From an uncultured Candidatus Saccharibacteria bacterium (GTDB lineage: Bacteria > Patescibacteriota > Minisyncoccia > Minisyncoccales > GWA2-38-27), in NCBI GenBank assembly GCA_964509645.1, contig CAZDXV010000001.1, positions 15,890 to 79,889 on the forward strand: a DNA stretch of 64,000 nucleotides, in the 5' to 3' direction. Below, piece after piece: positions 5,712-64,000 of this stretch. The notes beneath the pieces were generated by a model. That model saw nothing but the letters and a program-made list of their open reading frames with translations, searched no databases and had not been told where the DNA came from. Every line of letters starts with the position of its first letter. Position 1 is the first letter of the stretch. Made by a program: the position numbers and the translations under genes.

Positions 5712-6690
5712 AACAGTTTTTGTCATATTTTTATTTCTAGTTTTAGGTTTTATTATTTTCTTTTTTATAGGTTTTTCTGAAAAAGAAGAAGATATTTTGT
5801 GGGGAGTCAGCTTTTCTGAAAAGCATTCTTCTCAGATGGGTTTTGATTGGAAGAAAAATTATTCATCTTTGCTGGACGATTTAAATATTAAAAGAATTAA
5901 AGTAGCGGCTCACTGGGATCTTTTAGAGCCAGAGAAAGACGAATTCTTTTTTGACAATCTGGATTGGCAGATTAAAGAAGCGGAAAAAAGGGGAGCTAAG
6001 GTTATGCTGATTTTAGGGATAAAGACCTCTAGATGGCCTGAATGCCATATTCCTTCCTGGGTTTTAAAGCTTGAAGAGCAAGAACAAAAAGAACGAGTTT
6101 TAAACTTAATAGAAAAGACAGTTTCAAGGTATAAAAAAGAGGAAGCTGTTTGGGCTTGGCAGGTAGAAAACGAGCCCTTTTTCCGTTTCGGAGAATGCCC
6201 CTGGGAGATAGACGAGGATTTTTTGAAAAAAGAGATAGCCAGAGTTAAGTTCTTCGACTCCTTAAAAAGACCTGTTGTTGTTTCAGAGTCCGGCGAGTTT
6301 TCTTTTTGGTTTAAGGCAGCTAAGCTTGGTGATGTTGTTGGGACTACTCTTTACAGAAAGGTCTGGTCGGATCAGCTAAAAAGACATTTTACCCATATTT
6401 TTCCTCCTCTGTTTTATTCCAGAAAAGCTTCTCTTGTTAATTGGCTTTTCGGCAAAAAAGTTATTTGCGTTGAAATGCAGGCAGAACCTTGGGGACCCAG
6501 GCTTTTATATGATTCTCCCTTAGAAGAGCAGTTAAAAAGCATGGATCTTAACCAGCTAAAAGAAAATATATCTTTTGCTAAAAAAACAGGCTTTAAAGAG
6601 ATTTATCTATGGGGAGGAGAGTGGTGGTATTGGATGAAAGAAAGGGGAGACCCCCGTTTTTGGGAGGAAATTAAAAGATTAACAGAATAA
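5701..6690 (+). CDS. secreted/anchored TIM-barrel glycoside hydrolase (GH5/GH42-like)
   Basis: N-terminal TM, then WQVENEPF (catalytic-acid NEP motif of clan GH-A hydrolases). Confidence 0.45.
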   Translation: MKFKTVFVIFLFLVLGFIIFFFIGFSEKEEDILWGVSFSEKHSSQMGFDWKKNYSSLLDDLNIKRIKVAAHWDLLEPEKDEFFFDNLDWQIKEAEKRGAKVMLILGIKTSRWPECHIPSWVLKLEEQEQKERVLNLIEKTVSRYKKEEAVWAWQVENEPFFRFGECPWEIDEDFLKKEIARVKFFDSLKRPVVVSESGEFSFWFKAAKLGDVVGTTLYRKVWSDQLKRHFTHIFPPLFYSRKASLVNWLFGKKVICVEMQAEPWGPRLLYDSPLEEQLKSMDLNQLKENISFAKKTGFKEIYLWGGEWWYWMKERGDPRFWEEIKRLTE

Positions 6691-6718
6691 GTTTATCTTT
6701 TTTAAAAGATAATGTATA

Positions 6719-7429
6719 GTGAACTTGATGTTAAGCATTGTCATACCTTCTTTAAATGAAGAAAAAGAACTTTCTTCTCTGCTAGACTCCATTAAAGCTC
6801 AGGGCTTTTCAGATTATGAGATAATTTTAGCTGACGCAGGATCCAGAGATAAAACCCTTGATATTGCCAAAGAGTACGGGTGTAAAATAATCAAAGGGGG
6901 CCTTCCTGCTCAAGGAAGGAATAAAGGAGCTTCTGTTTCTTCGGGAGAAATTATCCTTTTTCTTGACGCTGACGTAGTTTTGCCTCCCGCTTTTCTGAGT
7001 TCCGCTTTAAAGGAGTTTAAAAAGAGAAAGCTTGATATCGCTTCCTTTAATTTGCTTCCTAAAAAAAGAGGTTCTTTTCTTTTTAATTTTTTCTATAATC
7101 GGCCCATGATTTTCTTGGAAAAAGTTCTGCCTCATGCCGCTATGGGAATTTTAGTTAAAAAAGATGTTTTTGAGAAAATAGGAGGGTTTGACGAAACAAT
7201 AAAAATGGCAGAAGATCATGAATTTGCCAGGAGAGGAAAAAAAATAGCTAGCTACGGGGTAATAAGGTCTGTTCCTCTTTTTGTATCCGAAAGAAGATTT
7301 GAAAAAGAGGGCTGGATTAAAACAGCTTTAAAGTATCTGTTTTACGAGCTTTACACTATCTTTATAGGACCTATAAAATCGGACAAGGTTGCAAATCTTG
7401 ACGACTATTTTAAAAACAGAAAGAAATAA
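6719..7429 (+). CDS. family 2 glycosyltransferase
   Basis: LSIVIPSLNEE...DYEIILADAGSRDKT...FLDADV, the GT2 DXD architecture. Confidence 0.75.
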   Translation: MNLMLSIVIPSLNEEKELSSLLDSIKAQGFSDYEIILADAGSRDKTLDIAKEYGCKIIKGGLPAQGRNKGASVSSGEIILFLDADVVLPPAFLSSALKEFKKRKLDIASFNLLPKKRGSFLFNFFYNRPMIFLEKVLPHAAMGILVKKDVFEKIGGFDETIKMAEDHEFARRGKKIASYGVIRSVPLFVSERRFEKEGWIKTALKYLFYELYTIFIGPIKSDKVANLDDYFKNRKK

Positions 7430-7446
7430 GTTATAATAATATAATT

Positions 7447-8730
7447 ATGTACGAACTCCCCGTTTTTAAAAAAAAGAAATCTTCTTTAAAAAAACTTAAA
7501 AAAAAGAAAACTGTTCTTTTTGCCTTTTTGATTATTATATTTTCTTCTGTTTTCGGTTTTGGAGCAGGAGTTCTTTCTATCTATTATTTTGTTCCCCAAT
7601 CTAGAGATATTATCGGGAAAGATTTGGGCATTCCTAGAATAGTGGAAAAGGAGACCGTAATAGAATATGTTCCTCAGACCACCCACGAGGAAGCTATTAT
7701 CCAATCTGTTAAGGAAGTATCTCCTGCGGTAGTAAGCATTGTTATTTCAAAAGATGTTCCTGTGATAGAAAGAAGAATTGAAGAGTTTGGCCCTTTTGAG
7801 ATAGAAGTTCCAGAACAAAAAGGGTTTGAAAGACAGGAGATCGGAGGAGGAACCGGATTTATTGTTTCAGAAGAGGGGCTGGTTCTTACTAATAAGCACG
7901 TTGTTCTAGATGAGGAAGCAGAATATACTGTTTTTTTTAAAAACGGAGATAGGTATCCTGCCAGGGTCTTGGCTAAAGATCCTTTTCAGGATATAGCTGT
8001 TCTTAAGATAGCTCAGGAAGAAAGGGTAAATGAAAAAGGAGAGATTACCAGAGAAAAGTTTCCTACAGTAAAACTAGGAGATTCTGACAGCTTGAAAATG
8101 GGGCAGACAGTAATAGCCATAGGAAATGCTTTGGGAGAATTTAAAAACACGGTTTCTGTGGGGGTTGTTTCCGGCTTGGGAAGAACTGTTACAGCTTCTG
8201 GCGGAGATTTTGTGGAAACTTTAGAGAATGTTATTCAGACAGACGCCGCTATTAACAGGGGAAACTCAGGAGGGCCTCTTTTGAATCTTAACAAAGAAGT
8301 AATAGGAATAAATACAGCAATGGTTAATCAGGCTCAAAGCATAGGTTTTGCTATTCCAATCAACAAAGCTAAAAGAGACATAGACCAAGTTCAAAAACAG
8401 GGGAAAATTGTCTATCCATTTTTAGGGGTACGCTACACCTTAATTACAGAAGAAATTAAAGAGTTAGAAGAACTTCCAATTGATTACGGAGCTTTGATTG
8501 TAGCAGGTTCACAGGGAGAACCTGCTGTAGTGGAAGACTCTGCTGCTAGCAGAGCGGACCTTAAAGAAGGAGATATTATTTTGAGAATAAACGGAGAAGA
8601 GATTAGACAAGAAAATTCTTTGGGAGATCTTGTAAGGTTATACAACCCGGGAGAAAGGATAACTTTAAGGATTTTAAGAAACGGACAGGAATTTGATCAG
8701 GACATAATTTTAGGAGAGAAGAGCGGATAA
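7447..8730 (+). CDS. htrA: HtrA/DegP-family serine endoprotease with C-terminal PDZ domain
   Basis: GTGFIVSEEGLVLTNKHVV (His region), D in FQDIAVLKI, GNSGGPLLN (catalytic Ser), C-terminal PDZ-like segment. N-terminal TM anchor. Confidence 0.85.
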   Translation: MYELPVFKKKKSSLKKLKKKKTVLFAFLIIIFSSVFGFGAGVLSIYYFVPQSRDIIGKDLGIPRIVEKETVIEYVPQTTHEEAIIQSVKEVSPAVVSIVISKDVPVIERRIEEFGPFEIEVPEQKGFERQEIGGGTGFIVSEEGLVLTNKHVVLDEEAEYTVFFKNGDRYPARVLAKDPFQDIAVLKIAQEERVNEKGEITREKFPTVKLGDSDSLKMGQTVIAIGNALGEFKNTVSVGVVSGLGRTVTASGGDFVETLENVIQTDAAINRGNSGGPLLNLNKEVIGINTAMVNQAQSIGFAIPINKAKRDIDQVQKQGKIVYPFLGVRYTLITEEIKELEELPIDYGALIVAGSQGEPAVVEDSAASRADLKEGDIILRINGEEIRQENSLGDLVRLYNPGERITLRILRNGQEFDQDIILGEKSG

Positions 8731-8776
8731 TTTTGAGTTCTTTTTAAATAAAGCTCTTTCAAAAAAGGAGAAAAAA

Positions 8777-9403
8777 ATGAAAAACGCGTCAAAACTTGCT
8801 GTGTTTTGCTGGGAAGTTTGCATTTTTTTGGTCTTATTCTTTGCTCTTTGGTGGTTTTTCATTTCGGCAGAAATAATAGAGCCGGTGGAAGAGATTACGA
8901 TAAACGAAAAATCTTTTAGAATGCCATTTGTATTTTCTCGATGGCTGGATTTTATTGCCCTTTCTTTTTTCTGGTTGATTCCTCTTTCTGCTTTGGTATT
9001 TTTTCAGAAACTGGAAGACGAGGTAGCCTTAAGGGATTTCGGTATCGTTATGGGGATTATGATGGCCATACTCTCTTTCAGCCTTTTTTTTCTGGTAGAG
9101 AACCCCTTTATTTTCATAGCTTTCTTTGCTTTGATTTTTCCCTTTCTGTTTGCTTTTTTAACTAGGTTTCTTTACGGAGAGATGGGTCTTTCCTGGAACA
9201 TGAATCTGAGGTTTTCCGTAACATTCCTTATTGTTCCCGGATTTTGTTGGGGCTTTCCTTTTATGATTCTTTTTTTTGTAGGCTCCTGGGTCGTCTTTCT
9301 TGCTGGAATCTGTCTGGATCTTTTAATCCGTGGAGTGAAAGCTTTAAGACTGATTATTCAATATGGAAAGGACTGGAGAAACTATTCTTCTTTGATGGTC
9401 TAA
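8777..9403 (+). CDS. hypothetical polytopic membrane protein
   Basis: Long ORF, several predicted TM helices, no recognisable motif. Confidence 0.35.
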   Translation: MKNASKLAVFCWEVCIFLVLFFALWWFFISAEIIEPVEEITINEKSFRMPFVFSRWLDFIALSFFWLIPLSALVFFQKLEDEVALRDFGIVMGIMMAILSFSLFFLVENPFIFIAFFALIFPFLFAFLTRFLYGEMGLSWNMNLRFSVTFLIVPGFCWGFPFMILFFVGSWVVFLAGICLDLLIRGVKALRLIIQYGKDWRNYSSLMV

Positions 9404-9408
9404 GTTAA

Positions 9409-9437
9409 AGAGCTTCAGGTTTTAACTGAAGCTCTTT
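9409..9437 (+). terminator. intrinsic terminator-like hairpin after the membrane protein gene
   Basis: agagcttcag / ctgaagctct 10-bp inverted repeat with 7-nt loop, followed by a T-rich stretch. Confidence 0.5.
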
Positions 9438-9441
9438 CTAT

Positions 9442-9469
9442 TTGACATTATTTTTAAAAAGAGTATACT
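9442..9469 (+). promoter_or_regulatory. sigma70-like promoter upstream of the PilZ gene
   Basis: TTGACA, 16-nt spacer, TATACT. Confidence 0.4.
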
Positions 9470-9511
9470 TTGTAATTAGGTATCTAAGAACTCTAAATAA
9501 GGAGAGAAGAC

Positions 9512-9844
9512 ATGCTGCGATCGCAAGAAAGAGGAGAATCTCATTTTTTTCAGGGTGATTTTGTTTTAGAAGGACAGGGGGGTTTGAAGGATATTTCCGT
9601 GGGAGGGGCCTGCATTAAAGTGACTCACCCTCTTCCCGTGGGAAAGATTATTAGTCTGGAGATTAAGCTGCCAGAAGAATCTTTTAGTGCGCAATCTGAG
9701 GTGAGATGGTGCTCAAAAGAGGGAACAGACTATTTAGTTGGGCTTCAGTTTATGGACCTTGAAGAAAAAGAGAAGGAAATCATCCAGGTCTTAGTTTCTG
9801 TTCTTAAAAAATTAACCTCCGCAAAAAATCCGGAGGTAAATTAA
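9512..9844 (+). CDS. stand-alone PilZ-domain protein (predicted c-di-GMP receptor)
   Basis: N-terminal RSQER (RxxxR) and DISVGGA (D/NxSxxG), the two c-di-GMP-binding signatures of PilZ domains. Confidence 0.65.
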   Translation: MLRSQERGESHFFQGDFVLEGQGGLKDISVGGACIKVTHPLPVGKIISLEIKLPEESFSAQSEVRWCSKEGTDYLVGLQFMDLEEKEKEIIQVLVSVLKKLTSAKNPEVN

Positions 9845-9898
9845 AGCACAAGGGACACCCCCCTTGAGCTTTTTCCCCCGGAGTCAACCCTTCGGGAA

Positions 9899-9930
9899 GG
9901 CCCCTCACTACTAAATGAGGGGCTTTTATT
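9899..9930 (+). terminator. rho-independent terminator
   Basis: gcccctca-N8-tgaggggc stem followed by TTTTATTT. Confidence 0.6.
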
Positions 9931-10070
9931 TGACATTTTTTTTAGGAGGAATAAAATAATTACAGGAAGTTGTTTCAAACCGCTTTCACGAAGGCGGCTT
10001 GAAACAGCTTCTTTGCGGAGAAGAGCTGTTTTTTTTAAGGTTCTTTTACATTAAGGATGGGAGAGAAAAA

Positions 10071-10424
10071 ATGAGTGAGCTAGTGAAAATGTCTGAAAAA
10101 TTGAAGCCCGGAACAAAAGTGCTAATCAACAAAGGAAGAAAGAAAGGAGAGTTTGGCGTAATAATTCCGGACACAGAAAAAGTTTGTTGTAACGACACAA
10201 TTCTTGTTGAGCTGGGTCCTCTCTCTGGCGGGGTTTTTGATCTTAGAGACCTCGAAGTTTTAAAAAGAATCGATTGGAGCGAAGTCAATCTTCGAAGATG
10301 TATGGGGTGTATTTTTGAAACTGCGAGCGGATGCGGAAGATACAAGCGCTGTAGAGGAGATCTTTTGCAGCGCATGGTAGGCTGGATTCCTTCCGGCGTA
10401 CCTCCTCGTTGTAGAAAAAATTAA
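10071..10424 (+). CDS. small hypothetical protein, KOW-like N-terminus plus Cys-rich C-terminal (possible zinc ribbon)
   Basis: Likely start at the ATG at 10071, preceded by aaggatgggag. KPGTKVLINKGRKKGEFGVII resembles a KOW motif; C-terminal CMGC...CGRYKRC. The ORF-track start at 9999 lies inside an upstream hairpin region. Confidence 0.4.
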   Translation: MSELVKMSEKLKPGTKVLINKGRKKGEFGVIIPDTEKVCCNDTILVELGPLSGGVFDLRDLEVLKRIDWSEVNLRRCMGCIFETASGCGRYKRCRGDLLQRMVGWIPSGVPPRCRKN

Positions 10425-10430
10425 AATTAG

Positions 10431-10460
10431 AGCGGTCTTGTTTGAGGCCGCTTTTATTTG
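10431..10460 (+). terminator. rho-independent terminator
   Basis: gcggtc-N8-ggccgc stem followed by TTTTATTTG. Confidence 0.5.
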
Positions 10461-10476
10461 ATTTTAGCTTAATTTT

Positions 10477-13191
10477 ATGTTAAAAAGAGGTATTATGATG
10501 AATATGCAAGGAGGAAATTTTACCCATAAAGCCCAGAAAGCAATACTTTCTTCTCAGAATTCTGCCCAGAATAACGGTCAGCAGCAGGTGGATGCTTTGC
10601 ACTTGCTTAGCGCTTTGCTTTCTCAGCAGGAAAGCATTGTTTTGACGCTGATGGACAAGCTGGGTGTTGACAAGGACAACTTAAAAGAAAAAACGAGAAA
10701 AGCCTTAACTCAAATTTCCAGCGTGTCTGCTGCTAAAGGACAGGGACAGTTCTATCTGACTCAAGATATGGCGAAAGTTTTGGAAAGAGCCAGCAAGGAG
10801 GCTATGAGAATGGGAGATGAGTTTATTTCAGTAGAACATTTGTTTTTAGCTTTATTAGCTGTTGAGACCAAAGCTAAAGAGATTTTAGATAAAGCCACTT
10901 TTGTTAAGGGATCGGGGAGCGCAGGAACTTTGGAGGTCTCCAATCTTGATTATGAAGCGGTTCTCAAAAATTTATCTAAGATAAGAGGCAATTCTAGAAT
11001 TACAGATCCGGATCCTGAGTCCAAATATCAAGTTGTAGAGAGGTACACCAAGAGCCTTGTCTCTCTTGCCAGGCAGGGCAAATTGGACCCTGTTATAGGA
11101 AGAGAAGACGAGATAAGGAGGTTGATGCAGGTTTTGTCTAGAAGGACCAAGAATAATCCTGTCTTGATAGGGGAAGCCGGTGTGGGAAAAACAGCTATTG
11201 TAGAAGGGCTTGCCCAGAGAATAATAAAGGGAAATGTTCCTGAAAGCTTAAAAGATAAAGAAATAATCAGTTTAGATTTGGGTGCCTTAATTGCCGGTAC
11301 AAAATACAGGGGAGAATTTGAAGATAGGGTAAAAGCTTTGCTAAAGGAAGTTGCCAGAGCTTCAGGAAAATACATCCTCTTTATAGACGAGCTTCATACT
11401 CTTGTGGGAGCCGGAGGAGCTGAAGGAGCTATCGACGCTTCCAATCTTTTAAAACCCGCCTTAGCCAGAGGAGAATTGAAGGCTATAGGAGCTACAACCT
11501 TGAAAGAATACCAGAAGTATATAGAAAAAGATACAGCTTTGGAAAGAAGATTCCAGCCTATTTATGTAAAAGAGCCCTCCGTAGAAGATACAGTATCTAT
11601 TTTAAGAGGCATTAAAGAAAAATACGAAGTTCATCACGGCCTTAAGATAAAAGATTCAGCTTTAGTAGCTGCAGCCGAGCTTTCTTCCCGATATATTACA
11701 GACCGGTTTCTGCCGGATAAAGCGGTGGATTTAATGGATGAAGCCATGTCTGCTTTAAGACTGGAAATAGAATCAGAACCCACTAAGCTTGACGATCTTA
11801 AAAAAGAGATTCAGAAGTTGGAAATAGAAAAAGAAGCCATTAAAAAAGAAAAAGGTTCTTCTAAAAGATTGAAGGCCATAAAAAGATCTTTGGCTGATCT
11901 GAAAGAGAAAGCCGAGGAGTTTGAAACCAAGTGGAGGTCAGAGAAAGATCTTATTCATGAGATAAGAAACAAGAAAAAGAAAATAGACGATCTTACCTTT
12001 CAATCAGAGATAGCTCAAAGAGAGGCCGATTTGCAGCAAGTAGCTGAAATAAAATACGGCAAAATTCCAGAGCTTTTAAAAGATATAAGGAAAGCTGAAA
12101 AAAAGCTTGGCAGAATACAAAAAAGCAGGCAGATTCTTAAAGAAGAAGTTTCAGAGGAGGATGTAGCCATAATTGTTTCTCGCTGGACAGGAATCCCCGT
12201 TACCAAGCTTATAGAAGCTGAAGCCAAAAAGCTAGAAAAGATGGAAGATATACTTTCAAAAAGAGTAATAGGGCAGTCAGAAGCGATCTCTGCCACATCT
12301 AACGCTCTAAGAAGGGCAAGAGCCGGGATATCAGAGGAAGATAGGCCTTTGGGTTCTTTTATGTTTTTAGGTCCTACCGGTGTAGGTAAGACGGAAACCG
12401 CTCGCGCCCTAGCTGAGTTTCTTTTTAACGACGAAAACTCCTTAGTTCGCCTTGATATGTCAGAGTATATGGAAAAGCACGCCGTGTCCAAAATGATAGG
12501 TTCTCCTCCTGGTTATGTTGGTTTTGACGAAGGAGGACAGCTTACAGAAAAGATAAGGAGAAGGCCTTACAGCGTTATTCTTTTGGATGAAATTGAAAAA
12601 GCTCATCCAGATGTTTTTAACATCCTTCTTCAGATTTTAGAAGACGGAAGGCTTACTGACGCTAAGGGGAGAACGGCTTCTTTCAAGAACGCTATTTTAA
12701 TAATGACATCCAACATTGGTTCTGAGCATATAGCAAAGATGGGTTCTTTGGGATTTTTGGGAGACAGTAAGGGCCAGGAAAGAGAAAGCTTGAAAGATAA
12801 AGTAATGGGAGCTTTAAAAGAAAGCTTTAGGCCTGAGTTTATAAACAGAATAGATGATATCGTTATATTTAATTATCTGAGCCAAAAAGAGATTAAGCAA
12901 ATTGTAGAACTTGAGATTGATAAAGTCAAAGCTCGTTTAAAGAAGAAAAATATTAAGATAAAGGTTTCAGAAAAAGCCAAAGGTCTTTTAGCGGAGCAAG
13001 GCTTTGATCCTAATCTTGGAGCAAGGCCGCTGAAGAGAATTATTCAGCAGAAGGTTTTAAATCCCTTGTCTTTAAAGATTGTAGCCGGTGTTATAAAGGA
13101 GGGAGAAAGGGTTTTGATTGATGTTGAAAAAAAGAAGATTACAGTAGAAGCTCCTTCTGAAACAAAGAAGAAAACCACTGTTTTAAAATGA
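10477..13191 (+). CDS. clpB: ATP-dependent chaperone ClpB (two AAA+ modules with coiled-coil middle domain)
   Basis: Clp N-domain repeats; Walker [19 protein letters not shown] and [17 protein letters not shown]; [17 protein letters not shown]; long coiled-coil M-domain between the NBDs. Real start possibly a few codons downstream (MMNMQ). Confidence 0.9.
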
Positions 13192-13871
13192 AAAAAATAG
13201 TTTATTTGATCTTAGCTTTTGTTTTCGGTTCTGCCGGAGGCGTTTTTGCTACTCACATTTTTCAAAATTACTTTATCAAATATGAGAGACCTGTAGAGAT
13301 AGTAGAGAAAAAAGAGATTATTATAGAAGAAAATACAGCCTTGCAAGATAGCGTTTCCCAAATAGAAAAAGCTGTTGTCGGAGTAAGGACTGAAACCTTG
13401 TCGGGGATAATAGAAGGATCTGGTTTGGTTGTAACTACAGACGGCCTGATGGTTACCTTTTCCGACTTAATCCCCAGAGGAGGGGAATTTTCTTTTTACG
13501 TGGAAGGAGAAACTCCTTCCTACCAAGTTTTAAAAAGAGACGAAGAAAGCAATCTTGCCTTAATAAAGCTGGATAAAAACAATTTGGCTACAGTGGGATT
13601 TACCGAGTTTGGAAGTTTAAGATTCGGGCAAAGAGTGTTTTTAATAGGAAAAAGCTTAGAAAAAGGAAAAATTGTTGAAACAGTTAACGAAGGGATTATT
13701 AAAAGATACGATTTAACAGTTATTAAAACAAATATATTAGAGAGCCGGAACCTTGAAGGAAGCCCTTTGTTTAATATCAAGGGTCTTTTGGTAGGATTAG
13801 TTAGGGTTGATTCTTACGGGCAGGTTTCAGCTCTTCCCATTTCCAAGATAAGAGAATTTGCGGGATTTTAA
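13188..13871 (+). CDS. trypsin-like serine peptidase domain protein (small, possibly degenerate, no PDZ)
   Basis: N-terminal TM; [13 protein letters not shown] and LEGSPLFN segments resemble an S1C fold with a GxSxxP-like Ser region. Overlaps the clpB stop by 4 nt. Confidence 0.45.
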
Positions 13872-13872
13872 C

Positions 13873-13901
13873 TTGACAGAATAAAATCTTCTCCTTATAA
13901 T
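13873..13901 (+). promoter_or_regulatory. perfect consensus sigma70 promoter (TTGACA-17-TATAAT)
   Basis: TTGACA at 13873-13878, exact 17-nt spacer, TATAAT at 13896-13901. Predicted TSS ~13908, directly into a 10-bp perfect hairpin (13906-13932) and the GC-rich island. Confidence 0.6.
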
Positions 13902-13986
13902 CAAAACACATCAGGTACGGTGCCTGATGTGTTTTAAATTAGTTCTTTGTCATAACCCGCAAGGCGGGTAGAAAGGAGCAGTCGCG

Positions 13987-14843
13987 ATGAGAGAATCGAC
14001 GGCGCTCAAGATGACCGAAGGCCAAGAAAGAGAGATTGTTCGGCTTTTTGAGGAGGGAGGAAGATGGGCTTTAGGAATTGTTAAAGAGAATTAAGCAGAG
14101 AGGAAGCTCAGGTTATTATCAACAAAGGGAACGAGCTTCGTGAAGATTTCCCTGAACTTCTCAGGAAGCTGGGAAAAGGCAAATTCTCCGACGAAGAAGC
14201 GGAGTCTGACCATGTTTATCCTTCAGGCTACAGCCACAAGGATATCACAGCTCAGACAGATATCCTTCAATCCTTCTTCTCTGGTTTAGGACGAGCCAAA
14301 GAAGAACTGGCAAAAGCTTCTCTTCCCAAGGGAGCAGAAGCCTTTTTCGCCATTCCCCAATGGCAAAAGCTTGGCCAAACTTACGAAGAAGCGGTTGAGA
14401 AGGTTTTCGGGGCTATTGCCTCAAAGAGAGCTTTCCATAGCCTCAGAACCGACTATCTCAGAAGAAACGAAAAAACAGAGAGAATGCTCCAAACCCTGGC
14501 TTAACAGCAAGGAAATCCGGACATCCTTGTGGTTCCCGCCCAATTCGGTCTCAGACACCGAGGAAGGTCTATCAGAAGGGCAAGAGAGATGTTTACAGCC
14601 CAAGAGTTCGGGCTGGGAGCATTCGAAGTGGGGATTATGCTCCTCACTCATCTACACCGCCTGACAGATTACAAAGATCTCTGGGTTGACTGTCCCGGAG
14701 ACGAATATTCTCCGACTGTCGACGGCCAGTTTGTCGACGCATTCTACTTTGGCTTTCACGGCGGTGGGGACGGGTTCTTTGCCCGCTGGGCTGGCAGTGC
14801 CTACGGCCTCTTTGGCTCTGTGTCGGCCTTCCTGCCGCAGTAA
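13987..14843 (+). pseudogene. GC-rich (~50-55%) disrupted coding region of unknown function: SD+ATG at 13987, one frameshift near 14085-14094 and one in-frame TAA at 14502-14504
   Basis: AAGGAG 8 nt upstream of the ATG at 13987. A 35-codon ORF is followed by a 250-codon open frame (14085-14843) with a single stop, far fewer than the ~12 expected by chance at this GC. No start codon in the second segment. Composition very different from the flanking ~33% GC genes. Confidence 0.35.
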
Positions 14844-15149
14844 ATTGGATTTTGGGCTTTGGTTCTTGTCTGGAATCTTGGCTCTTGGATTCAAAATTAA
14901 GGGGCTGCTTGAAAGAGTAGCCCTTTTTGTTTTGGTTGATTAATGTGTTTTAGGGGTTTAGAATGGAATAAAGGGTAAATCCTGGCTAATTTTATGATAA
15001 AAATAGCGGGAATCATTCTCCTTATAGGTTTTATACTGCTTTGTGTGCTAGGTTTTAGGAAGGGATGGGACGATAAAAACAAACAGTTTTAGCAATTTGT
15101 TTTTGACAAAAATTGTTTTTTGGATAGAATAAGCTTGGAACCTTTAAAG

Positions 15150-16235
15150 AACATTCAGTCCTCAAATAGGACACCTGCGATAGGTGTTTTTTTGTTTTGT
15201 AATAGTACCAAAATCTTTTAATGTTTTAAATTGATTATTTTCTAACATTACTTCCAGGGGTGTCTTGTATTTTAAACCTTTTCTCGGCCTGCTGTTGAGT
15301 TTTCTTTCAATTTCTCTGATGTAGCCGTCGCTGTATTTAGAAATGTCGCTGCCTTTGGGAATATATTGCCTGATTAGTTTGTTGATATTTTCAACCCCTC
15401 CTTTTTCCCAGGAATGATAAGGATGGCAGAAGTAAACCGGAGCTCCTAGAAGTTCAGACAATTCCTCGTGTTTTCTGAAAGAGATGTCATTGTCTATGGT
15501 TAGAGAATTAAAACAAACAAATCCACCGGTCATTTCTTTCAGGTAGCGATTAACGACTGCGCAGCTGCGAGTCATTAATCTTTTAATCATCACATACATC
15601 GCTTTTCTTTCGTAAAGGACAATTAATACTCCTTTGCCAGTTTTGTTGGAGACGATGAAGTCTCCTTCCCAATCGCCGAATCTTTGCTTTTTCCCGATTA
15701 TTTCAGGCCTTTCATCAATAAAGACCCTGTTTTTTAGTTGGTTGACTTTTACTCTTCTGCCACTCTTTCTTTTTCTACCTTTGTAGCGAAGATGCTGTTC
15801 CAAAGATCTGCCGTAGACTGAATAGACGAATTTGTAGATGGCTTCCCGGCTGGCGTATTTAATGTGTCTGTCAACTTCTTTTAGTCTGCCGGCTATTTCT
15901 TCTGGCGACCAGTCTGTTTTCAAGTTTTCCTCAACGTAGTTTCTTAATTGTCCATCTTCAACAACTTTCATTCCTTGATATTTGGAATATTTCCTCTTTA
16001 CATAGGCCTTGTGCTGGGCCTTGTAGGGATCATATTTTCCCCTGACGCTGTTTTTAGATATTTCAAGCGAAATGGTGTTGGGGCTTCTTTTGAGTACTTT
16101 GGCAATATCTCTGTTGCTGTACCCTTTCCCTTTTAACAGAGCAATCTCCAGACGCTCTGTTTTTGTTATGTGTTTGTAGTTTCTCATGGCGGTATTTTAC
16201 ACCACCAAGTGTCCTACTTCAAACATGAATTTACG
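15150..16235 (-). mobile_element. IS30-family insertion sequence (single transposase, imperfect terminal inverted repeats)
   Basis: Transposase ORF on the minus strand flanked by similar inverted ends containing TAGGACAC (aaataggacacct near 15165; aagtgtcctactt near 16207). ~1.08 kb, typical IS30 size. Boundaries approximate. Confidence 0.7.
15162..16187 (-). CDS. IS30-family transposase (HTH plus DDE)
   Basis: N-terminal HTH (ERLEIALLKGKGYSNRDIAKVLKRSPNTI); GDWEGDFIVSNK (IS30 GxWEGD motif); downstream D...E catalytic residues; 341 aa. Confidence 0.9.
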   Translation of the reverse strand: MRNYKHITKTERLEIALLKGKGYSNRDIAKVLKRSPNTISLEISKNSVRGKYDPYKAQHKAYVKRKYSKYQGMKVVEDGQLRNYVEENLKTDWSPEEIAGRLKEVDRHIKYASREAIYKFVYSVYGRSLEQHLRYKGRKRKSGRRVKVNQLKNRVFIDERPEIIGKKQRFGDWEGDFIVSNKTGKGVLIVLYERKAMYVMIKRLMTRSCAVVNRYLKEMTGGFVCFNSLTIDNDISFRKHEELSELLGAPVYFCHPYHSWEKGGVENINKLIRQYIPKGSDISKYSDGYIREIERKLNSRPRKGLKYKTPLEVMLENNQFKTLKDFGTITKQKNTYRRCPI

Positions 16236-16563
16236 TTTAAAAAAGGAGAAAGCTCTGGCAGAGGATCGAGTGATTTCGGAGGATAATTTCGTGGAATTGG
16301 TGGGAGAAAAGCTTAACATTTTGCAGTTTTCCCGGACTCTGGATCTTTTTCGAAAATTTGGTCCCAGATTATCATGGGACGTGACTAATGTTTTGCTTTA
16401 TGCCGCAGAGCAGGATAAAGCGCAAGACGTTTTGAATATTCTGGAAAATCATTTTAAAGCAGATCTTTCTTTTCAGCACCCTGATGCAAGGGGGCTGAAC
16501 AAAAGGACAGAGATTATGTTTCACGATCTCTGCGTTAAAACGCTTGGTCTTAAACCCTCTTGA
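16225..16563 (+). CDS. hypothetical protein (possibly 5'-truncated by the IS30 insertion)
   Basis: ORF 16186..16563 begins inside the IS30 terminal repeat. First internal ATG at ~16225 (MNLRL...). No recognisable domain. Confidence 0.3.
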   Translation: MNLRLKKEKALAEDRVISEDNFVELVGEKLNILQFSRTLDLFRKFGPRLSWDVTNVLLYAAEQDKAQDVLNILENHFKADLSFQHPDARGLNKRTEIMFHDLCVKTLGLKPS

Positions 16564-16571
16564 AAGAAAAA

Positions 16572-16600
16572 GAGCTCTCCTACGGGAGAGTTTTTATTTC
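16572..16600 (+). terminator. rho-independent terminator
   Basis: ctctcc-TACG-ggagag stem-loop followed by TTTTTATTT. Confidence 0.6.
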
Positions 16601-16732
16601 TGTCTAGGTCCAGGTACATATGATACAATAGGCATAAGTTTATGTTTAGAAAATCAAAAAGAAAGATAAAAAGAGATATTAAGAAAGAAAATTACCAGAA
16701 AGAGATAATAGATTTTACTAAAGTGAAAAAAA

Positions 16733-16740
16733 GGGGGGGG
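16733..16740. repeat. G8 homopolymer in an AT-rich intergenic region (A7 immediately upstream)
   Basis: aaaaaaagggggggg read directly. Unusual in this low-GC background; ~135 nt upstream of the 16875 gene. Confidence 0.9.
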
Positions 16741-16825
16741 TTAATATTGAAGAGATTCTAAAACGTTTATAGATTTTCTATAGAAGAAAAACTCTTCACA
16801 AAGTTAGTTTTCCACAGGGTTTTGC

Positions 16826-16854
16826 TTGAACCTTGTGTTTTTTGTTTGTAGAAT
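16826..16854 (+). promoter_or_regulatory. sigma70-like promoter for the 16875 gene
   Basis: TTGAAC, 17-nt spacer, TAGAAT. ATG 21 nt downstream. Confidence 0.5.
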
Positions 16855-16874
16855 AGAGAAATTAACTCGTACTT

Positions 16875-17516
16875 ATGACTAAAAAGAAAAAGATTGTTGT
16901 CATATCTTTGTCTATTTTTATTTGGCTTCTTCTTTTTGGAGGAGCTTATTTTCTTTATGAATGGATATACTTTAAAATATCTGAAGGACCTGATCTTTCT
17001 TATGAAAATGAATTTGTGAAGGCAGAAGAGTTTGAGGTTATAGAGAAGCTAGAGGGGAGGTTTGTCAAATGCGAAAAATATTCTTTAAAGGTTAAAGTTC
17101 CCGAGAACTGGACTGTAAAAATTTATAATGGAGTAGCTCTTTATGATCCTAATACTGATGAAGATAATCTGTTAGAAAGCGCGAGGCAGGGAGCTTGCGG
17201 TATGGGAGTTGAGATTTACGAAAATAAAAAAAACAGCTCAGAGTCTACAACCTATGCTGATTATTTGAATAAATTGATTAAATCCTTGGAGAATAGCGGA
17301 CCCCGAGAAGATTCAGAAAGCAGAGAAGAGGTTGTCCTAATTGATGGAAACAAAGGGATTAAGAAAACTTTGTTTCATGAAGAAAAGGTTTCTTTTGTTA
17401 ATATAGAAATGCCTATAAATCAGACAATTTATGGTTTTACGAGTGGTTTTATTGGTTCAGAAAAATGTGTTGATGCTTTTAATAGCATTATGGAAACTGT
17501 AGAGATTAATAAATAG
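16875..17516 (+). CDS. hypothetical membrane-anchored extracytoplasmic protein
   Basis: N-terminal Lys-rich signal anchor (KKKKIVVISLSIFIWLLLFGGAYFLY), then a soluble domain with two Cys. Confidence 0.45.
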   Translation: MTKKKKIVVISLSIFIWLLLFGGAYFLYEWIYFKISEGPDLSYENEFVKAEEFEVIEKLEGRFVKCEKYSLKVKVPENWTVKIYNGVALYDPNTDEDNLLESARQGACGMGVEIYENKKNSSESTTYADYLNKLIKSLENSGPREDSESREEVVLIDGNKGIKKTLFHEEKVSFVNIEMPINQTIYGFTSGFIGSEKCVDAFNSIMETVEINK

Positions 17517-17604
17517 TTCTTTTATAGCTCTTTCTAATAGTTCTTTAAGATAAGAATATCAAGCTTTATAGAAATTAGATTCTAAAACTAACCTTGATTT
17601 ATTT

Positions 17605-20600
17605 GTGCGGATTTTAGCTAAAAGAGCAATTTCCTATGCTTTTCTTTTAATTTTTATAGGCAGTTTTTTGTTTTTGCCTAAAATTGGAATAGCTAAGGAA
17701 ATTTCGGTAGAAGATTTGATCGCCAATTCAGAGAAAATACAGCTAGAAGAGGACGAGGGAAAGCATATATTAAGATCTCTTCTACAAGAACTTCATGATG
17801 AATGGGAAGCTGTTGTAGTAGAAGGAGGAGAGAAAGTTAAAGAAAAGGAAGTTATTTTACTTGCAGTAAAGAAAGCTGTTCAAAAAGATTTATTCAATTA
17901 TGTATTTTTAGAGGCCCCTAAAGAAATAGGGAAAGAAATTATTAAAATAGGGGCGAAAATAGTAGCTATAGTTTGGGGGGGAGATCCTTCTACTATTACC
18001 AAAGAGGCTTTAGAGGAAATAGAGAAATTATCTGTAGAGAAGGCAAAAGAATATGTGATGGAGTGGCTTCTACAGAATCAGATTAAAGTTATTGGGGGAA
18101 ATCTTTCTGTTTCTTATTACTCTCTTAAAGCAGAGTTTCAGCATATCATTATCTATAGACCGGTAGCTGTTAATGAGGGAAGAGTAAATATTAGTATCTA
18201 CTCTTCTTCTGTTATTAATAACATTCCTTATCCTGGACCTTATTTTCAATGGGAAGGAGGCATAGATAAATTACCTCCCTTTATACTTGAAATAGAAGGA
18301 ATGGTTAAGAAAGATAGATATGGAAGCTATGTTTGGACAGAGGGACCTGAAATGAACTACATATTTGATCAGAGGGTGCCAGAGTTTACTTTTAAAGAGA
18401 TTGGCTTTTTTGATAAGTGGAGAGCTGAAATAAAGAAGAGTCTGTTGGCTTTTGATAAATTGAAGGGAATAATAGAGGAAATAAGCAAAAAAGGGCAGGA
18501 ATACGGAGGAGATTTCTGGGAGGAATTTAGGTCTGTTCTATCTGATTTAAATCCATTTCAGGCTACAGTTAATCCAGAAAACCTTTTTCCGGAAGGCTAC
18601 TCGGAAGTAGATTTTTCTGAAATTGAAGCAGAAGAGCCTTCTTCTGAGACTCCTCAAGAAGATTCAGAGGTAGAAGAACTAGAAAAAGAACCGGAAGAGG
18701 AACTGGATCAAGAATCCGGGGAAGTTTTAGAAAAAGAAGGAAAATCAAGACAGGATGTTATGGATGATATTTTAGAAAGAATAGATATTTTAAACAGCAG
18801 GATTGATAAATTAAATCAAAAAAATGAAGATAGTGGTTCTGGAGAGGAGAAACAAGAAGAGAAGGAGGATAGAGATTATGAAGAAGACGAAAAAGAGGAA
18901 GAAGAAGACGAAGAAGAGGAAGATGATGAAGAAGACGAAGAGGAAAACCAAGAGGAAAGCAATACAGGAGGAGGCGGAGGATCTTCAGAGCCTGATTATT
19001 GTAATATTCCGGCCTCAGATCCTTCGAAAGAAAGGGTAATTTTAAACGAAATAGCTTGGATGGGAACAGAATCTTCTTCTAATGATGAATGGATTGAGCT
19101 TAAGAATATTTCAGATGAAGCTGTTAATGTAAACGGATGGCAGATTATAGACAGGGACGGACAGATAAAGGAAATTTTAGTTTCTAAAGAGCTTCAGCCA
19201 GGAGAATTCTATCTTTTAGAAAGAACAGACGATAGTTCGGTTCCAACTGTTTTAGCCGATCTTATTTACACAGGAGGTTTAAACAATACAAATGAGGCTC
19301 TTTATCTTTTTGACAATAATTGTCAGCTTCAAGATAAAGTAGAAGCTGATCCTGATTGGCCGGCAGGCAACAACGAGAATAAAAAAACAATGGAAAGGGG
19401 ACCGGATTTGAATTGGCATACTTTTTCAGGAGAGGGCAATGGAACGCCGAAATCGGAGAATAGCTCTCTTCTTTCTGTAGCTGTTTTAGATGTTTCACCT
19501 AAAACCCTTTTATTTGAAAGTAAATCATCTTCTTCTGCAATAATAAGAGTAGACACCAAGGGGAAGAATCTGGGGTGGACTGCCAGTTCTTCTGCGGCAT
19601 GGCTTGAGATAAACCCTGTTTCCGCTACCAGTTCTCAGGATGTTAGCGTATCGGTTGACTGCGGTAATTTATCTCCAGGCGATTATTCTGCCGATATTAT
19701 CTTTTCAACAGAGGATTTGGAAGAAACAGTAGAAATTGACTTAATTGTTGAGCCGGAGATAAAACCTTTAGATCATTTAGTTATTTCAGAGGTTCAACTG
19801 GGAGATAAAGAGTTTGTAGAACTTTACAATCCAAAAAACCAGGATATAGACCTTTCTTCCTTTTACTTCTCTTATTACTCTTCCAGTAGAGAAGAGTGGA
19901 ATAATCCTTATCGCAACAAACAGTTTTCTGCAAGCTCAACTATCTCTGCCAAGGGGCATTATTTAATAGGATTTAAGGGCTACCCTGATGTTTTAGGCAA
20001 TCCTGCTAGCGATTGGCAGATTTATTCTTCTTCCCAATTAAGCGACTCTGAAGGAAGTATAGCTATATTTCCTTGGAATCCTTTAGAAAAGTCCTCAGAA
20101 GAGGCGGAAGAAGGAAGAATAGATGCAGTAGGCTGGGGAAATGTTTCTATAAAAGAAGGCGAGAGTTGCGGTTCTGTCTCTGAGGGAAAAAGCTTAAATA
20201 GAATTAACGGGCAGGATACAGATTTTAACAGTTTTGACTTTGAGGAAAAAGAACCAACTCCCATTAATTCAAAAAATGAAACGTATTCTATTCCTTCTTC
20301 TGATAAGTTTGCCTGGCCCATGATTCAACAAAATCCAAAACATACAGGCAGGAGCAAGCATTCTATTCCAGAAAACTTGGAAGAAAAATGGAGTTTGGTT
20401 TTAGAAGACTCTATTTCAGGAAGGAACATAGGAGCGAGTTATCAGCCGATAATAGGAAAAGATGACATTGTTTATTATGTTTTAAGAGAGTCCTCAGACA
20501 ATGTTTGGGGCAGAATTTGTGCTGTAGATCCAAACGGCAATAGAAAATGGAGTTATGAACTAGATGGAGATTTTCCTTATGCACCAAGTATAGGTTCGGA

Positions 20601-21933
20601 CGGAACAATTTACGTCCCCACCCATAGAGGTTTTGTTTATGCTCTTAACCCTCAGGGAAAAGAAAAATGGAGGTTTGATACGGGAGAGGAAGACTGGATA
20701 TCTAAAATTTCGATAGGGGAATATCATAATATTTATTTTACAGATTACAAGTATGTCTATAGCGTTGACTCTAAGGGCGATCTCAACTGGAAGAATACGG
20801 GAGTAACAAGAGGGGGTTCGGCTAATCTAGGTCCTGCCATAGGGGAAGATGGAACAATTTATGTTTCTTGGACGGGGTTTAAGAATTTTCAAGATGCACG
20901 GACAGGAGCTTTGTACGCCTACAACCCAGTGGACGGGAGCGAAAAATGGCATACTCTTCTTGATCATGATGCTACATCTCCCGTTGTAGGAGCAGACAAC
21001 AAAATATATCTTATAGCGGGAGATCCCTGGGCGGGACATGAATACCGCACTTTAAGAGCTTTTAATCCAGACACAGGAGAAGAAGCGTGGAGGAGTGAAA
21101 AGGCTTCAGACGGAAGTATTAAAATTCCTCTTTTAAGTTCTGATAATAGGATAATTATAACAGACAGCTGGGGAGAGTTTGTAGGATGGTCCTGGGGAAG
21201 CCAAGTTTATCAGCCAGTTTCTAATATGACATCGTATAACTTTGATGGAGACATAGTTTGGGAGTCTGAAATAAAGAAAAGCCTTACCTTTTACAAAAAT
21301 ATTTTAGTTGGAAACCAGAATAAGATTTTAACTCAAAGAAAAGTTTATGATAAAGAATGGAAATTTCCATTTATTAAAAACGAAATAGAGCTTTTCGGTG
21401 CTGATTACAGTTCTTTGGAGAAAATAGATATCTCAGGAGAGTTTTTGTCTTCTTTTTCAGCGGGGGAAAACCACATTTATTTTATAGTAAAAGATAATGA
21501 TAAAATAATGCTCAAAGCTTTTGGAGAGGGGCCTAAGAAAGTAAAAGGATGTACAGATCCCGAAGCTTTAAATTATAACCCAGAAGCTGTTACTGATGAC
21601 GGCTCCTGTATCGTTCCAGAAGTCGAAACAGATAATTTAAATTCTGTTCCTCCCTTAGAGTCTCTTGCTCCTCTTTCAAGTTCTTCTACTCAGCTTGATT
21701 CTTCTTCTATTCCTTTTGAAATAAAAGAGGAAGAGAGCAGTAGCTCCACTGTTCTTAAAGAAGAAGAAAGCGTGCAGATAGAAAGCGGGTCTTCTACTCC
21801 CGACATTTTTCTTAAAAAAAATAGCAGTTCTACGCAAGAAACCTCTTTTGTTTCAGGATCATCTTCTGCGGTAGAGGAATTAAAGACAGAGAAGATTGAA
21901 GATGGTTCAGCAAGTTCTACTGCCGGCTATTGA
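17605..21933 (+). CDS. giant secreted surface protein (1442 aa): N-terminal anchor, acidic low-complexity tract, two lamin-tail-domain (LTD)-like modules, Ig-like module, PQQ/BamB-like beta-propeller repeats, C-terminal CTDPxALNYNPxAxxDDGSC motif and Ser-rich tail
   Basis: LTD-like segments VILNEIAWMGTESSSNDEWIELKN...NGWQI and LVISEVQLGDKEFVELYNPKNQDIDLSSFYF. Repeated GSDGTIYV / GEDGTIYVS / DNKIYLIAG motifs typical of PQQ-like propeller blades. (E/D)n tract at ~18830-18960. Hydrophobic N-terminus. Confidence 0.7.
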   Translation: MRILAKRAISYAFLLIFIGSFLFLPKIGIAKEISVEDLIANSEKIQLEEDEGKHILRSLLQELHDEWEAVVVEGGEKVKEKEVILLAVKKAVQKDLFNYVFLEAPKEIGKEIIKIGAKIVAIVWGGDPSTITKEALEEIEKLSVEKAKEYVMEWLLQNQIKVIGGNLSVSYYSLKAEFQHIIIYRPVAVNEGRVNISIYSSSVINNIPYPGPYFQWEGGIDKLPPFILEIEGMVKKDRYGSYVWTEGPEMNYIFDQRVPEFTFKEIGFFDKWRAEIKKSLLAFDKLKGIIEEISKKGQEYGGDFWEEFRSVLSDLNPFQATVNPENLFPEGYSEVDFSEIEAEEPSSETPQEDSEVEELEKEPEEELDQESGEVLEKEGKSRQDVMDDILERIDILNSRIDKLNQKNEDSGSGEEKQEEKEDRDYEEDEKEEEEDEEEEDDEEDEEENQEESNTGGGGGSSEPDYCNIPASDPSKERVILNEIAWMGTESSSNDEWIELKNISDEAVNVNGWQIIDRDGQIKEILVSKELQPGEFYLLERTDDSSVPTVLADLIYTGGLNNTNEALYLFDNNCQLQDKVEADPDWPAGNNENKKTMERGPDLNWHTFSGEGNGTPKSENSSLLSVAVLDVSPKTLLFESKSSSSAIIRVDTKGKNLGWTASSSAAWLEINPVSATSSQDVSVSVDCGNLSPGDYSADIIFSTEDLEETVEIDLIVEPEIKPLDHLVISEVQLGDKEFVELYNPKNQDIDLSSFYFSYYSSSREEWNNPYRNKQFSASSTISAKGHYLIGFKGYPDVLGNPASDWQIYSSSQLSDSEGSIAIFPWNPLEKSSEEAEEGRIDAVGWGNVSIKEGESCGSVSEGKSLNRINGQDTDFNSFDFEEKEPTPINSKNETYSIPSSDKFAWPMIQQNPKHTGRSKHSIPENLEEKWSLVLEDSISGRNIGASYQPIIGKDDIVYYVLRESSDNVWGRICAVDPNGNRKWSYELDGDFPYAPSIGSDGTIYVPTHRGFVYALNPQGKEKWRFDTGEEDWISKISIGEYHNIYFTDYKYVYSVDSKGDLNWKNTGVTRGGSANLGPAIGEDGTIYVSWTGFKNFQDARTGALYAYNPVDGSEKWHTLLDHDATSPVVGADNKIYLIAGDPWAGHEYRTLRAFNPDTGEEAWRSEKASDGSIKIPLLSSDNRIIITDSWGEFVGWSWGSQVYQPVSNMTSYNFDGDIVWESEIKKSLTFYKNILVGNQNKILTQRKVYDKEWKFPFIKNEIELFGADYSSLEKIDISGEFLSSFSAGENHIYFIVKDNDKIMLKAFGEGPKKVKGCTDPEALNYNPEAVTDDGSCIVPEVETDNLNSVPPLESLAPLSSSSTQLDSSSIPFEIKEEESSSSTVLKEEESVQIESGSSTPDIFLKKNSSSTQETSFVSGSSSAVEELKTEKIEDGSASSTAGY

Positions 21934-63249: not shown

Positions 63250-64000
63250 AAGTTCCATTTGTAAACTACGGATTACAGTACAAAAACTTAAAAGAAGAGA
63301 TAGATAAAGCTATCTTCAAGGTTTTAGAAGGGGGAGATTTAATATTAAGAGAGGATGTGGAAGAATTTGAAAAGAAATTAGCTGATTTTGTAGGAACAAA
63401 GTTTGCTGTTTCCTTAAACAGCGGAACGGACGCTTTATTCTTTTCCTTAAAAGCTTTAGGGATAGGAAAAGGAGACGAAGTAATAACTGTCTCTCACACT
63501 TTTGTAGCTTCAATTTCTACAATAGTTCAGGCGGGAGCTACTCCTGTTTTAGTTGATGTAAAGGAAGACTATTTAATGGATGAAAATAAGCTGGAAGAAG
63601 CTATAACAGAGAAGACAAAAGCTATTATGCCTGTTCATTACAATGGAAGAATGTGTAATATGGAAAAGATCAAAGAAATTGCAGATAAACACAGCCTTTA
63701 TATCATAGAAGACGCAGCTCAGGGCTTAGGATCTTCTTTTAAGAATAAAAAGGCAGGCTCTACGGGCATTACAGGATGCTTTAGCTTTTATCCTGCTAAA
63801 ATACTGGGTTGTTTTGGAGACGGTGGAGCTTTAACTACAAATTCTGAGGAGATAGCAGAAGAAGTAAAACTTTTAAGAGATCATGGTCAGAAAACTAAGA
63901 CTAACATAGTTGAATTCGGTTGGAATTCCAGATTAGATAATATTCAGGCAGCTGTTTTGAATATTAAAATAGATCAGCTACCTTCCTGGATTGAGAGAAG
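63246..64000 (+). CDS. DegT/DnrJ/EryC1/StrS-family sugar aminotransferase (third copy), 3' end beyond the window
   Basis: ATG at ~63246 (MKVPFVNYGLQYKNLKEEIDKAI...); DAAQGLGS...FSFYPAKILGCFGDGG; frame open to the window end. Confidence 0.75.
   Translation, partial: MKVPFVNYGLQYKNLKEEIDKAIFKVLEGGDLILREDVEEFEKKLADFVGTKFAVSLNSGTDALFFSLKALGIGKGDEVITVSHTFVASISTIVQAGATPVLVDVKEDYLMDENKLEEAITEKTKAIMPVHYNGRMCNMEKIKEIADKHSLYIIEDAAQGLGSSFKNKKAGSTGITGCFSFYPAKILGCFGDGGALTTNSEEIAEEVKLLRDHGQKTKTNIVEFGWNSRLDNIQAAVLNIKIDQLPSWIER

Follow-up and report, generated by a model that had tools for sequence, protein, structure and literature searches.

Diversity-generating retroelements (DGRs) are reverse-transcriptase mutagenesis systems that are common in Patescibacteria. 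In the Candidate Phyla Radiation (CPR), the DGR targets of 'clade 2' typically have no recognisable domain (Roux et al. 2021, PMC8144416). The survey by Wu et al. (2018, PMC5758913) left most of the CPR variable regions (VRs) unclassified, with classes UVR1-6. In phage BPP-1, a GC hairpin with a GRNA loop, located 4-34 bp past the VR, is needed for homing, and the post-VR hairpins of DGR targets have GC stems of 7-10 bp and 4-nt GRNA loops (Guo et al. 2011, PMC3240598). Herein, a gene at 13987-14843 on the plus strand of the window is compared with these systems. The window is the whole 64,000-nt stretch of contig CAZDXV010000001.1 that was analysed, and positions without another label refer to it. 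The gene is probably a recently inactivated remote DGR target.

The translated frame of the gene was searched against a collection of 5.8 billion sequences, and 907 protein matches were found. The best match was P0001 (8.3e-105, 67% identity), and P0002 was matched at 1.5e-100 with 65% identity, in both cases along the entire length. These two relatives are encoded on two contigs, L001 for P0001 and L002 for P0002, of the same metagenome-assembled genome (MAG), GCA_964609075.1. Nearly all the homologs are 281-299 aa long (typically about 288 aa) and are unnamed or 'hypothetical'; where named, they belong to Parcubacteria/Patescibacteria. A profile search over 1.84 billion cluster representatives matched 2046 clusters, formed at 50% identity, and 1024 of them at E <= 1e-30. 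Sequence searches of Pfam, NCBIfam and PDB with the translated frame, single members, a 120-member alignment and the profile returned nothing meaningful, and no consistent Pfam match was present in any of the 120 members. Scattered weak Pfam matches to YcaO_C and His_Phos_1 were far below threshold and were rejected; the motif of the family, RHRG, differs from the RHG found in histidine phosphatases. Rfam gave 0 matches at the gathering score over the window, and a permissive scan of 13700-15200 (E <= 10) gave a best E of 0.75. Because 907 homologs and no Rfam match were found, the region is, as judged from its sequence, a protein gene of a large unannotated family.

The function of the family was identified from the loci in which its members reside. 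In L002, the order is the target gene for P0002, a 135-nt template repeat (TR) of its own 3' end, bAvd on the opposite strand, and RVT_1. The TR and the VR of L002 differ by 20 mismatches, 19 of which fall at TR adenines, and the TR reads in frame as AAC/AAT codons at the variable positions. The architecture is the same in L003, a JGI metagenome locus, with 17 of 20 mismatches at template adenines. In L009, a reverse transcriptase (RT) gene and an unannotated 157-aa open reading frame (ORF) lie upstream and the TR is on the opposite strand; 18 of its 23 mismatches are at adenines. Since the TR copies beside these three members differ from the 3' end of the gene almost only at adenines, the family is a variable-protein target of DGRs, found in three unrelated cassettes. 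The 'unknown function' given in the initial annotation, a first reading made from the letters of the window, is thereby replaced. The VR of P0001 was also compared with the TR on the other contig of its MAG (L002), and 20 of 26 mismatches were at adenines. This match indicates that P0001 is a remote target served in trans. No RT was found within 6 kb of the members in L004 and L010; L010 carries two tandem paralogs with identical 3' elements of the CTTG-repeat type described below.

A hairpin was also seen after each TR, at 9312-9350 in L002, at about 7415-7445 in L003, and on the minus strand just below 5411 in L009. The arms of these hairpins have the form AAAAG(N)C.. / ..G(N)CTTTT. This hairpin is presumably a part of the DGR RNA used by the RT.

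The VR of the window gene was located at 14711-14842 (+) from the limits of TR-VR homology read in L002. The window stretch 14707-14841 aligns without gaps to the L002 TR (9177-9311) with 95 of 135 positions identical. The 40 mismatches are distributed as 24 on 33 adenines and 16 on 102 other bases (Fisher p = 2.5e-9). The VR extends up to the stop codon, and the adenine-free, GC-rich stretch at its 3' end, GCTCTGTGTCGGCCTTCCTGCCG, is retained in L001, L002 and the TR. We infer that a DGR from the same genome as the window rewrote this VR. When near-identical VR variants were sought with the C-terminal 112 aa, none was found, and the best match was 65% identical over the full query; truncated copies of the family did come to light in this search.

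The 64-kb window was searched for the DGR machinery by tblastn, using four RTs and two Avds associated with the family, and neither an RT nor an Avd was hit at E <= 0.05. One weak RT-like tblastn match at 63339-63425 was rejected, as its translation reads by eye like that of an aminotransferase. No TR was found in the 64 kb either; the best non-self match to the VR was 54/132. These results indicate that the DGR machinery must be elsewhere in the genome or lost. A scan for the cognate TR with the adenine-free VR end GCTCTGTNTCGGCCTTYCTGCCG returned only the related MAG in a genome-contig collection and nothing in a metagenome-contig collection.

The reading frame of the window copy was then compared with those of the intact relatives. 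A 35-codon ORF runs from 13987 to 14094, and another frame is open from 14085 to 14843 (253 codons) with a sole TAA at 14502-14504. The initial annotation had described this 35-codon ORF, the change of frame and the single TAA in the long frame, and had proposed a recently inactivated protein-coding gene. These descriptions are confirmed, and both the frameshift and the stop are changes relative to intact relatives. The 35-codon ORF MRESTALKMTEGQEREIVRLFEEGGRWALGIV corresponds to the N-terminus MTVSTTLGMTEGQKKEIVRLFENGGRRALEIVEGELDSEKAQ that follows a mis-called extension in P0001. The first gene fragment, with the true N-terminus, covers 13987-14082 (+) and was aligned to P0001 MTVSTTLGMTEGQKKEIVRLFENGGRRALEIV. 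A 1-nt deletion is located between 14082 and 14083, after codon 32, where the nucleotide alignment with L001 reads ATTGTT-AAAGAGAA versus ATTGTTGAGGGAGAG. By translation and homology, the second fragment continues in the shifted frame at 14083-14501 (+), with no start codon of its own. Near 14452, a 15-nt in-frame deletion is seen in both the nucleotide and the protein alignments; it removes KGQLG of the relatives, which lies in a conserved loop. The premature stop TAA (14502-14504, +) is a C>T change in a CAA (Gln) codon. The window reads GCT TAA CAG CAA at this site, both L001 and L002 read GCT CAA CAG CAA, and P0001 and P0002 carry MLQTLAQQQG. The third fragment, at 14505-14843 (+), was assigned by translation and homology; it contains the conserved core VVPAQFGLRHRGRS and the variable C-terminus and ends with the stop at 14841-14843. 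From these lesions, the target gene in the window would be non-functional.

The frameshift was verified in L005, a Logan contig from run SRR7048227 that was assembled independently. L005 matches the window over 11342-14266, without gaps and with 13 substitutions that all lie in clpB; its sequence at the frameshift site is identical to that of the window. The same frameshift in an independent assembly indicates that the lesion at 14082/14083 is not an artefact of the window assembly. A second assembly over the TAA and the VR was sought by exact-product look-ups of two possible C-terminal gene calls, and none was recorded.

Conservation was measured at 124 alignment columns that are at least 90% conserved in the family. 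The window copy departs from the consensus at 25 of them, compared with a mean of 4.3 for the family and with 19 and 14 for the two intact relatives. Outside the VR, the lineage-specific departures number 18 in the window copy and 8 and 3 in the intact relatives. The Nei-Gojobori ratio of nonsynonymous to synonymous substitution rates (dN/dS) between the window copy and the two intact relatives is 0.26-0.28, with a dS of about 0.7-0.8. This indicates that most of the divergence was built up under purifying selection and that the inactivation is recent on that scale, with which the term 'recently inactivated' is compatible.

The proposed mechanism is as follows. In the intact relatives, a protein of about 288 aa would have a conserved alpha/beta body, with its last 45 or so residues encoded by the VR. 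The RT and Avd would copy the TR RNA into complementary DNA (cDNA) and misincorporate opposite adenines. The mutated cDNA would then replace the VR, so that many different codons arise where the template has AAY. The window copy would be the positional ortholog of the 'remote' target, and its VR appears to bear the imprint of adenine-directed rewriting. It would later have been inactivated by the 1-nt deletion, the CAA>TAA change and the 15-nt deletion, with several family-invariant residues also lost. The expression signals and the cis elements around the VR appear to be still intact in the window copy.

Several observations weigh against the identification of the gene as a recently inactivated remote DGR target. 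The TAA at 14502 and the 15-nt deletion are not covered by a second assembly. The excess of conserved-site changes in the window copy is only moderately significant (p = 0.05 and 0.0015). The dN/dS of 0.26-0.28 is not above the value between the two intact relatives (0.47), and relaxed selection is not evident at that scale. The adenine bias of the window VR was measured against the template of another genome, and the variable positions may be partly ancestral. The cognate TR and RT of the window genome were not found in the two collections scanned, from both of which this genome is absent. Finally, when the structural model of P0002 described next was searched with Foldseek, no solved structure was matched at E < 1, including the solved DGR variable proteins.

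AlphaFold2 was used to predict the structure of P0002 with 120 homologs, and the model reached a pLDDT of 82.6 and a pTM of 0.78. It opens with three helices at the N-terminus, continues as an alternating beta/alpha body and closes with a three-strand meander at the C-terminus, in which the VR lies. Confidence is low for the stretch that begins near residue 220 and includes the first part of the VR. According to this model, assignment to a C-type-lectin fold is not supported, though it is not rigorously excluded. The target protein is expected to bind a ligand.

Shortened copies of the family were observed on long contigs as well. A 5'-truncated, C-terminal-only copy is present in L012 at 3001-3336 (111 aa), where it abuts an RVT_1 gene, and another is present in L013 at 3001-3495 (164 aa). 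Neither has an N-terminal part in any frame, and degenerate or minimal target copies are thus not rare.

The expression signals of the window gene are well preserved. A perfect sigma-70-type promoter, TTGACA-17-TATAAT, is located at 13873-13901 (+) with a 12/12 match. It is the sole perfect match in the 64 kb on both strands, and 0.05 would be expected by chance. A perfect match is also found upstream of P0001 (L001 7954-7982) and of P0002 (L002 7899-7927). The 5' leader (13908-13986, +) contains hairpin 1, a second structure and AAGGAG at 13973-13978, which is followed by the ATG at 13987. Hairpin 1 spans 13908-13930 and has 10 bp including one G-U pair; its pairing is preserved in L001 by two compensatory changes in the alignment (A-T to G-C and C-G to T-A). 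The second structure, at 13942-13979, has a 6-bp ACCCGC/GCGGGU stem, and GUUCUUU is paired to the Shine-Dalgarno region. The RNA of 13908-13995 folds at -29.4 kcal/mol (z = -3.7), a value equalled by 0 of 200 shuffles. The perfect promoter, the two leader hairpins, AAGGAG and the ATG had all been noted in the initial annotation, and all are present.

The leaders of L001 and L002 also fold with the Shine-Dalgarno sequence paired. The predicted pairing is with an upstream UUCUUU/CCUUUC and is located at 13942-13979 in the window, at about 8040-8078 in L001 and at 7973-7988 in L002. On these predicted folds, the pairing may be a clade-specific translational control. A leader structure common to the whole family was sought and was not found; only the clade of the window, L001 and L002 shares one.

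On the 3' side, about 100 nt past the stop codon are highly conserved among the genes of the window, L001 and L002. A terminator scan and folds identified a GC hairpin with 12 pairs, the loop GAAA and then a T run at 14899-14935 (+; hairpin 14899-14926). It is probably an intrinsic terminator. By analogy with described DGR targets, it possibly doubles as their post-VR hairpin. The hairpin is retained with altered stem bases in relatives, with the loop GCAA in L001 and L002 and GAAA in L008, and most family copies have a GC hairpin with a 3-4-nt loop after the CTTG element. The promoter and the terminator are expected to work as such for the target gene. Rather than a block of foreign DNA, the GC-rich region is a single transcription unit with one gene.

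A conserved non-coding element of CTTG(R) repeats lies between the stop codon and the hairpin, at 14844-14898 (+), as determined by repeat count and alignment. The window has 4 CTTG in the first 75 nt past the stop, where the background is 0.28 per 75 nt, and nowhere else on the two strands of the window do 4 or more fall within 72 nt. The 3' element and the GC content were compared in nine family copies: window 13987-14843, L001 8082-8957, L002 8001-8846, L003 6001-6873, L004 6001-6690, L008 6001-6855, L009 6001-6885, and the two L010 paralogs at 6001-6870 and 7014-7907. Two to five CTTG(R) are present in the first 75 nt past the stop in 8 of the 9 genes (window, L001, L002, L003, L008, L009 and both L010 paralogs), and the element is missing in L004. 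No CTTG enrichment was found downstream of the templates (0, 0 and 2 CTTG in 90 nt), where the conserved hairpin is a different one. In L009 and L010, an inverted repeat, GAATCCTTGGATC ... GATCCTTGGATTC, lies within the CTTG element. The element could be a target-site signal or an element of the 3' untranslated region. A role of the CTTG repeats and of the post-stop hairpin in homing is conjecture.

The GC content of the gene is 50.1%, with 55.8% in its last third, and that of the window is 34.6%. The gene is the highest-GC 857-nt stretch in the window. Its GC content at third codon positions (GC3) is 0.43-0.59, versus 0.285 +/- 0.05 (maximum 0.42) for the 52 window ORFs of at least 150 aa. 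The GC-rich block in AT-rich surroundings that the initial annotation had reported is therefore real, and it is an outlier in GC3 too. The same offset was found across the family. The nine copies have 50-63% GC (GC3 0.45-0.84) in loci of 35-47% GC, which they exceed by about 15-20 points. The RT and Avd genes that accompany them stay close to the host composition, with 32% and 29% GC in L002 for example. Since the GC excess is common to every copy examined, it gives no sign of a recent transfer of the window copy. The second-highest GC stretch of the window is at about 26150-27000, with about 46%.

The gene order clpB, Trypsin_2 (a trypsin-like gene) and target gene is the same in the window and in L001. 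In tblastx comparison, window 5457-14878 is collinear with L001 4-8992, and window 17130-20940 is collinear with L001 13142-16953. The flanking proteins of the two loci are about 72-91% identical. The sole non-collinear stretch is at about 14940-16875 of the window, past the terminator of the gene, and it contains an IS30-family element. This insertion sequence (IS) is outside the gene unit, at about 15148-16265 on the minus strand, with its transposase at 15162-16187 (NF033563, 237.6 bits), about 320 nt downstream of the target gene. The IS30 alone assembles as a 1118-nt Logan contig, which sets its approximate limits and excludes the target gene. No second IS30 copy was found in the window. 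Because the target is syntenic with that of L001, which is without IS30, the gene was in place before the IS arrived.

The interval between the target gene and a conserved 213-aa gene is a variable spot (L001 11480-12765 versus window 16186-16563). In the window it holds the IS30 and a 125-aa orphan ORF. In the related MAG, the spot is taken up by three small ORFs, an rve-type transposase, one ORF of 193 aa and a gene for an AbiEii toxin. Between the target gene and the IS30, at 14936-15092 (+), a promoter-like TTGATT-17-TAGAAT (conserved with L001 9020-9060) is followed by a 32-codon hydrophobic ORF, MIKIAGIILLIGFILLCVLGFRKGWDDKNKQF. Further on, at 15103-15190 (+), TTGACA-16-TAGAAT matches the promoter consensus at 11 of 12 positions, and about 40 nt later a hairpin with a T run is located at 15168-15190. 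The 3' end of the IS30 transposase gene, which is on the opposite strand, shares sequence with this hairpin, and the promoter is just outside the inferred IS end (about 15148). The 15103-15190 segment may give a small transcript or may be a feature of the IS end that faces outward.

Other explanations of the broken frame were weighed. The gene could be intact in the organism, with the frameshift and the stop as sequencing or assembly errors. Only the two point lesions break the frame, the promoter, the Shine-Dalgarno sequence and the terminator are perfect, the dN/dS is low, and the stop and the 15-nt deletion have no independent confirmation. However, the frameshift region is base-for-base the same in the SRR7048227 contig, which has its single-nucleotide differences elsewhere, a C>T substitution and a clean 15-nt deletion are atypical of assembly errors, and many family-invariant residues are missing from the window copy. 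An artefact is therefore considered improbable. The split gene might instead still be used, by programmed -1 frameshifting plus stop read-through, or by making the C-terminal VR part from a GTG at 14529. The frameshift would have to fall within 14084-14094, where no X XXY YYZ slippery heptamer is present. The ortholog and all other relatives are single-frame and carry Gln where the window has the stop, which leaves neither event conserved, and reassignment of TAA is not apparent, as neighbouring ORFs end in TAA. Continued use is thus about as poorly placed as an artefact, although the expression signals are fully conserved, AAGGA lies 13 nt ahead of the GTG, and short C-terminal-only members exist (111 aa beside an RT in L012, 164 aa in L013).

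The origin and the nature of the block were weighed in the same way. The initial annotation had favoured foreign cargo that may have arrived with the adjacent IS30. Recent horizontal transfer would account for a GC content of 50% against 34.6%, for a GC3 far beyond the window range and for a transposase 320 nt downstream. It is very improbable, given that the gene holds the same position between collinear flanks in a related genome, that the non-collinear part begins only past the terminator, that the IS assembles alone with the gene excluded, and that all nine copies share the GC excess beside RT and Avd genes near host GC. A structured non-coding RNA gene with an incidental open frame had already been judged the less likely option, and with no Rfam family at threshold, more than 900 protein homologs of which hundreds are intact and single-frame, and a dN/dS well below 1, it is hardly credible; the strong promoter and terminator, the high GC in an AT-rich genome and the significantly stable leader and 3' folds would also suit such a gene. 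A further reading extends the DGR assignment. The family would be a DGR scaffold of neither the C-type-lectin nor the immunoglobulin (Ig) type, with its own target-site signal formed by the CTTG element and the hairpin, and with a nucleotide-level process that keeps the GC of the whole gene 15-20 points over that of the host; the window copy would be dead but still rewritable. This extended reading is rather doubtful.

The identification of the gene as a decayed remote DGR target gives a specific identity, open to testing, to what had been described as a foreign, GC-rich island with no known function, and one seeming candidate for a large RNA gene or for IS cargo is thereby eliminated. Among the DGR targets of Patescibacteria the family is one of the commonest, but neither a Pfam or NCBIfam model nor a structural relative exists for it. 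The GC excess, the CTTG element and the frequent truncated or broken copies could bear on target recognition by CPR DGRs and on the role of variable proteins that look cytoplasmic. The current understanding of DGRs is not overturned by these findings.

The family was compared with the CPR DGR targets as described in two surveys (PMC8144416; PMC5758913). The host group is the same, the cassette consists of target, TR, bAvd and RT, and the TR-VR differences are adenine-specific. The VR is likewise at the extreme C-terminus, and neither a recognisable domain nor a signal peptide or transmembrane segment is seen in the target. Unlike these targets, the window copy is disrupted and has no DGR within 64 kb. 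Remote targets are described in reports on Treponema denticola and Legionella (PMC5758913, PMC4891356), where the target is far from the RT and the TR and is served in trans, as is shown here for P0001. In the present case, one CPR DGR has at least one adjacent target and one off-contig target.

The comparison with Mtd of phage BPP-1 (PMC3240598) gave both likenesses and differences. In both, the last part of the VR, up to the stop codon, is rich in GC, free of adenines and equal to the TR, and a downstream GC hairpin is present, which in the window has a GAAA loop and in relatives has changed stem bases. Unlike the phage examples, with distances of 4-34, the window hairpin is 56 nt past the VR and, given the T run behind it, is probably a terminator in the first place. 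The loop is GCAA, not GRNA, in the closest relatives, the intervening CTTG element has no counterpart in BPP-1, and the predicted protein fold has no match to Mtd. The C-type-lectin variable proteins Mtd, TvpA, AvpA and TaqVP (PMC5006420, PMC6328139) share the C-terminal VR and the AAY-encoded positions over about 45 residues. The P0002 model differs from them in its beta/alpha body and three-strand meander, with no Foldseek match at E < 1. Set beside these systems, the gene, as a decayed remote DGR target, belongs to an ordinary class of elements, and what stays of interest is the fold of the family, the GC offset and the 3' element.

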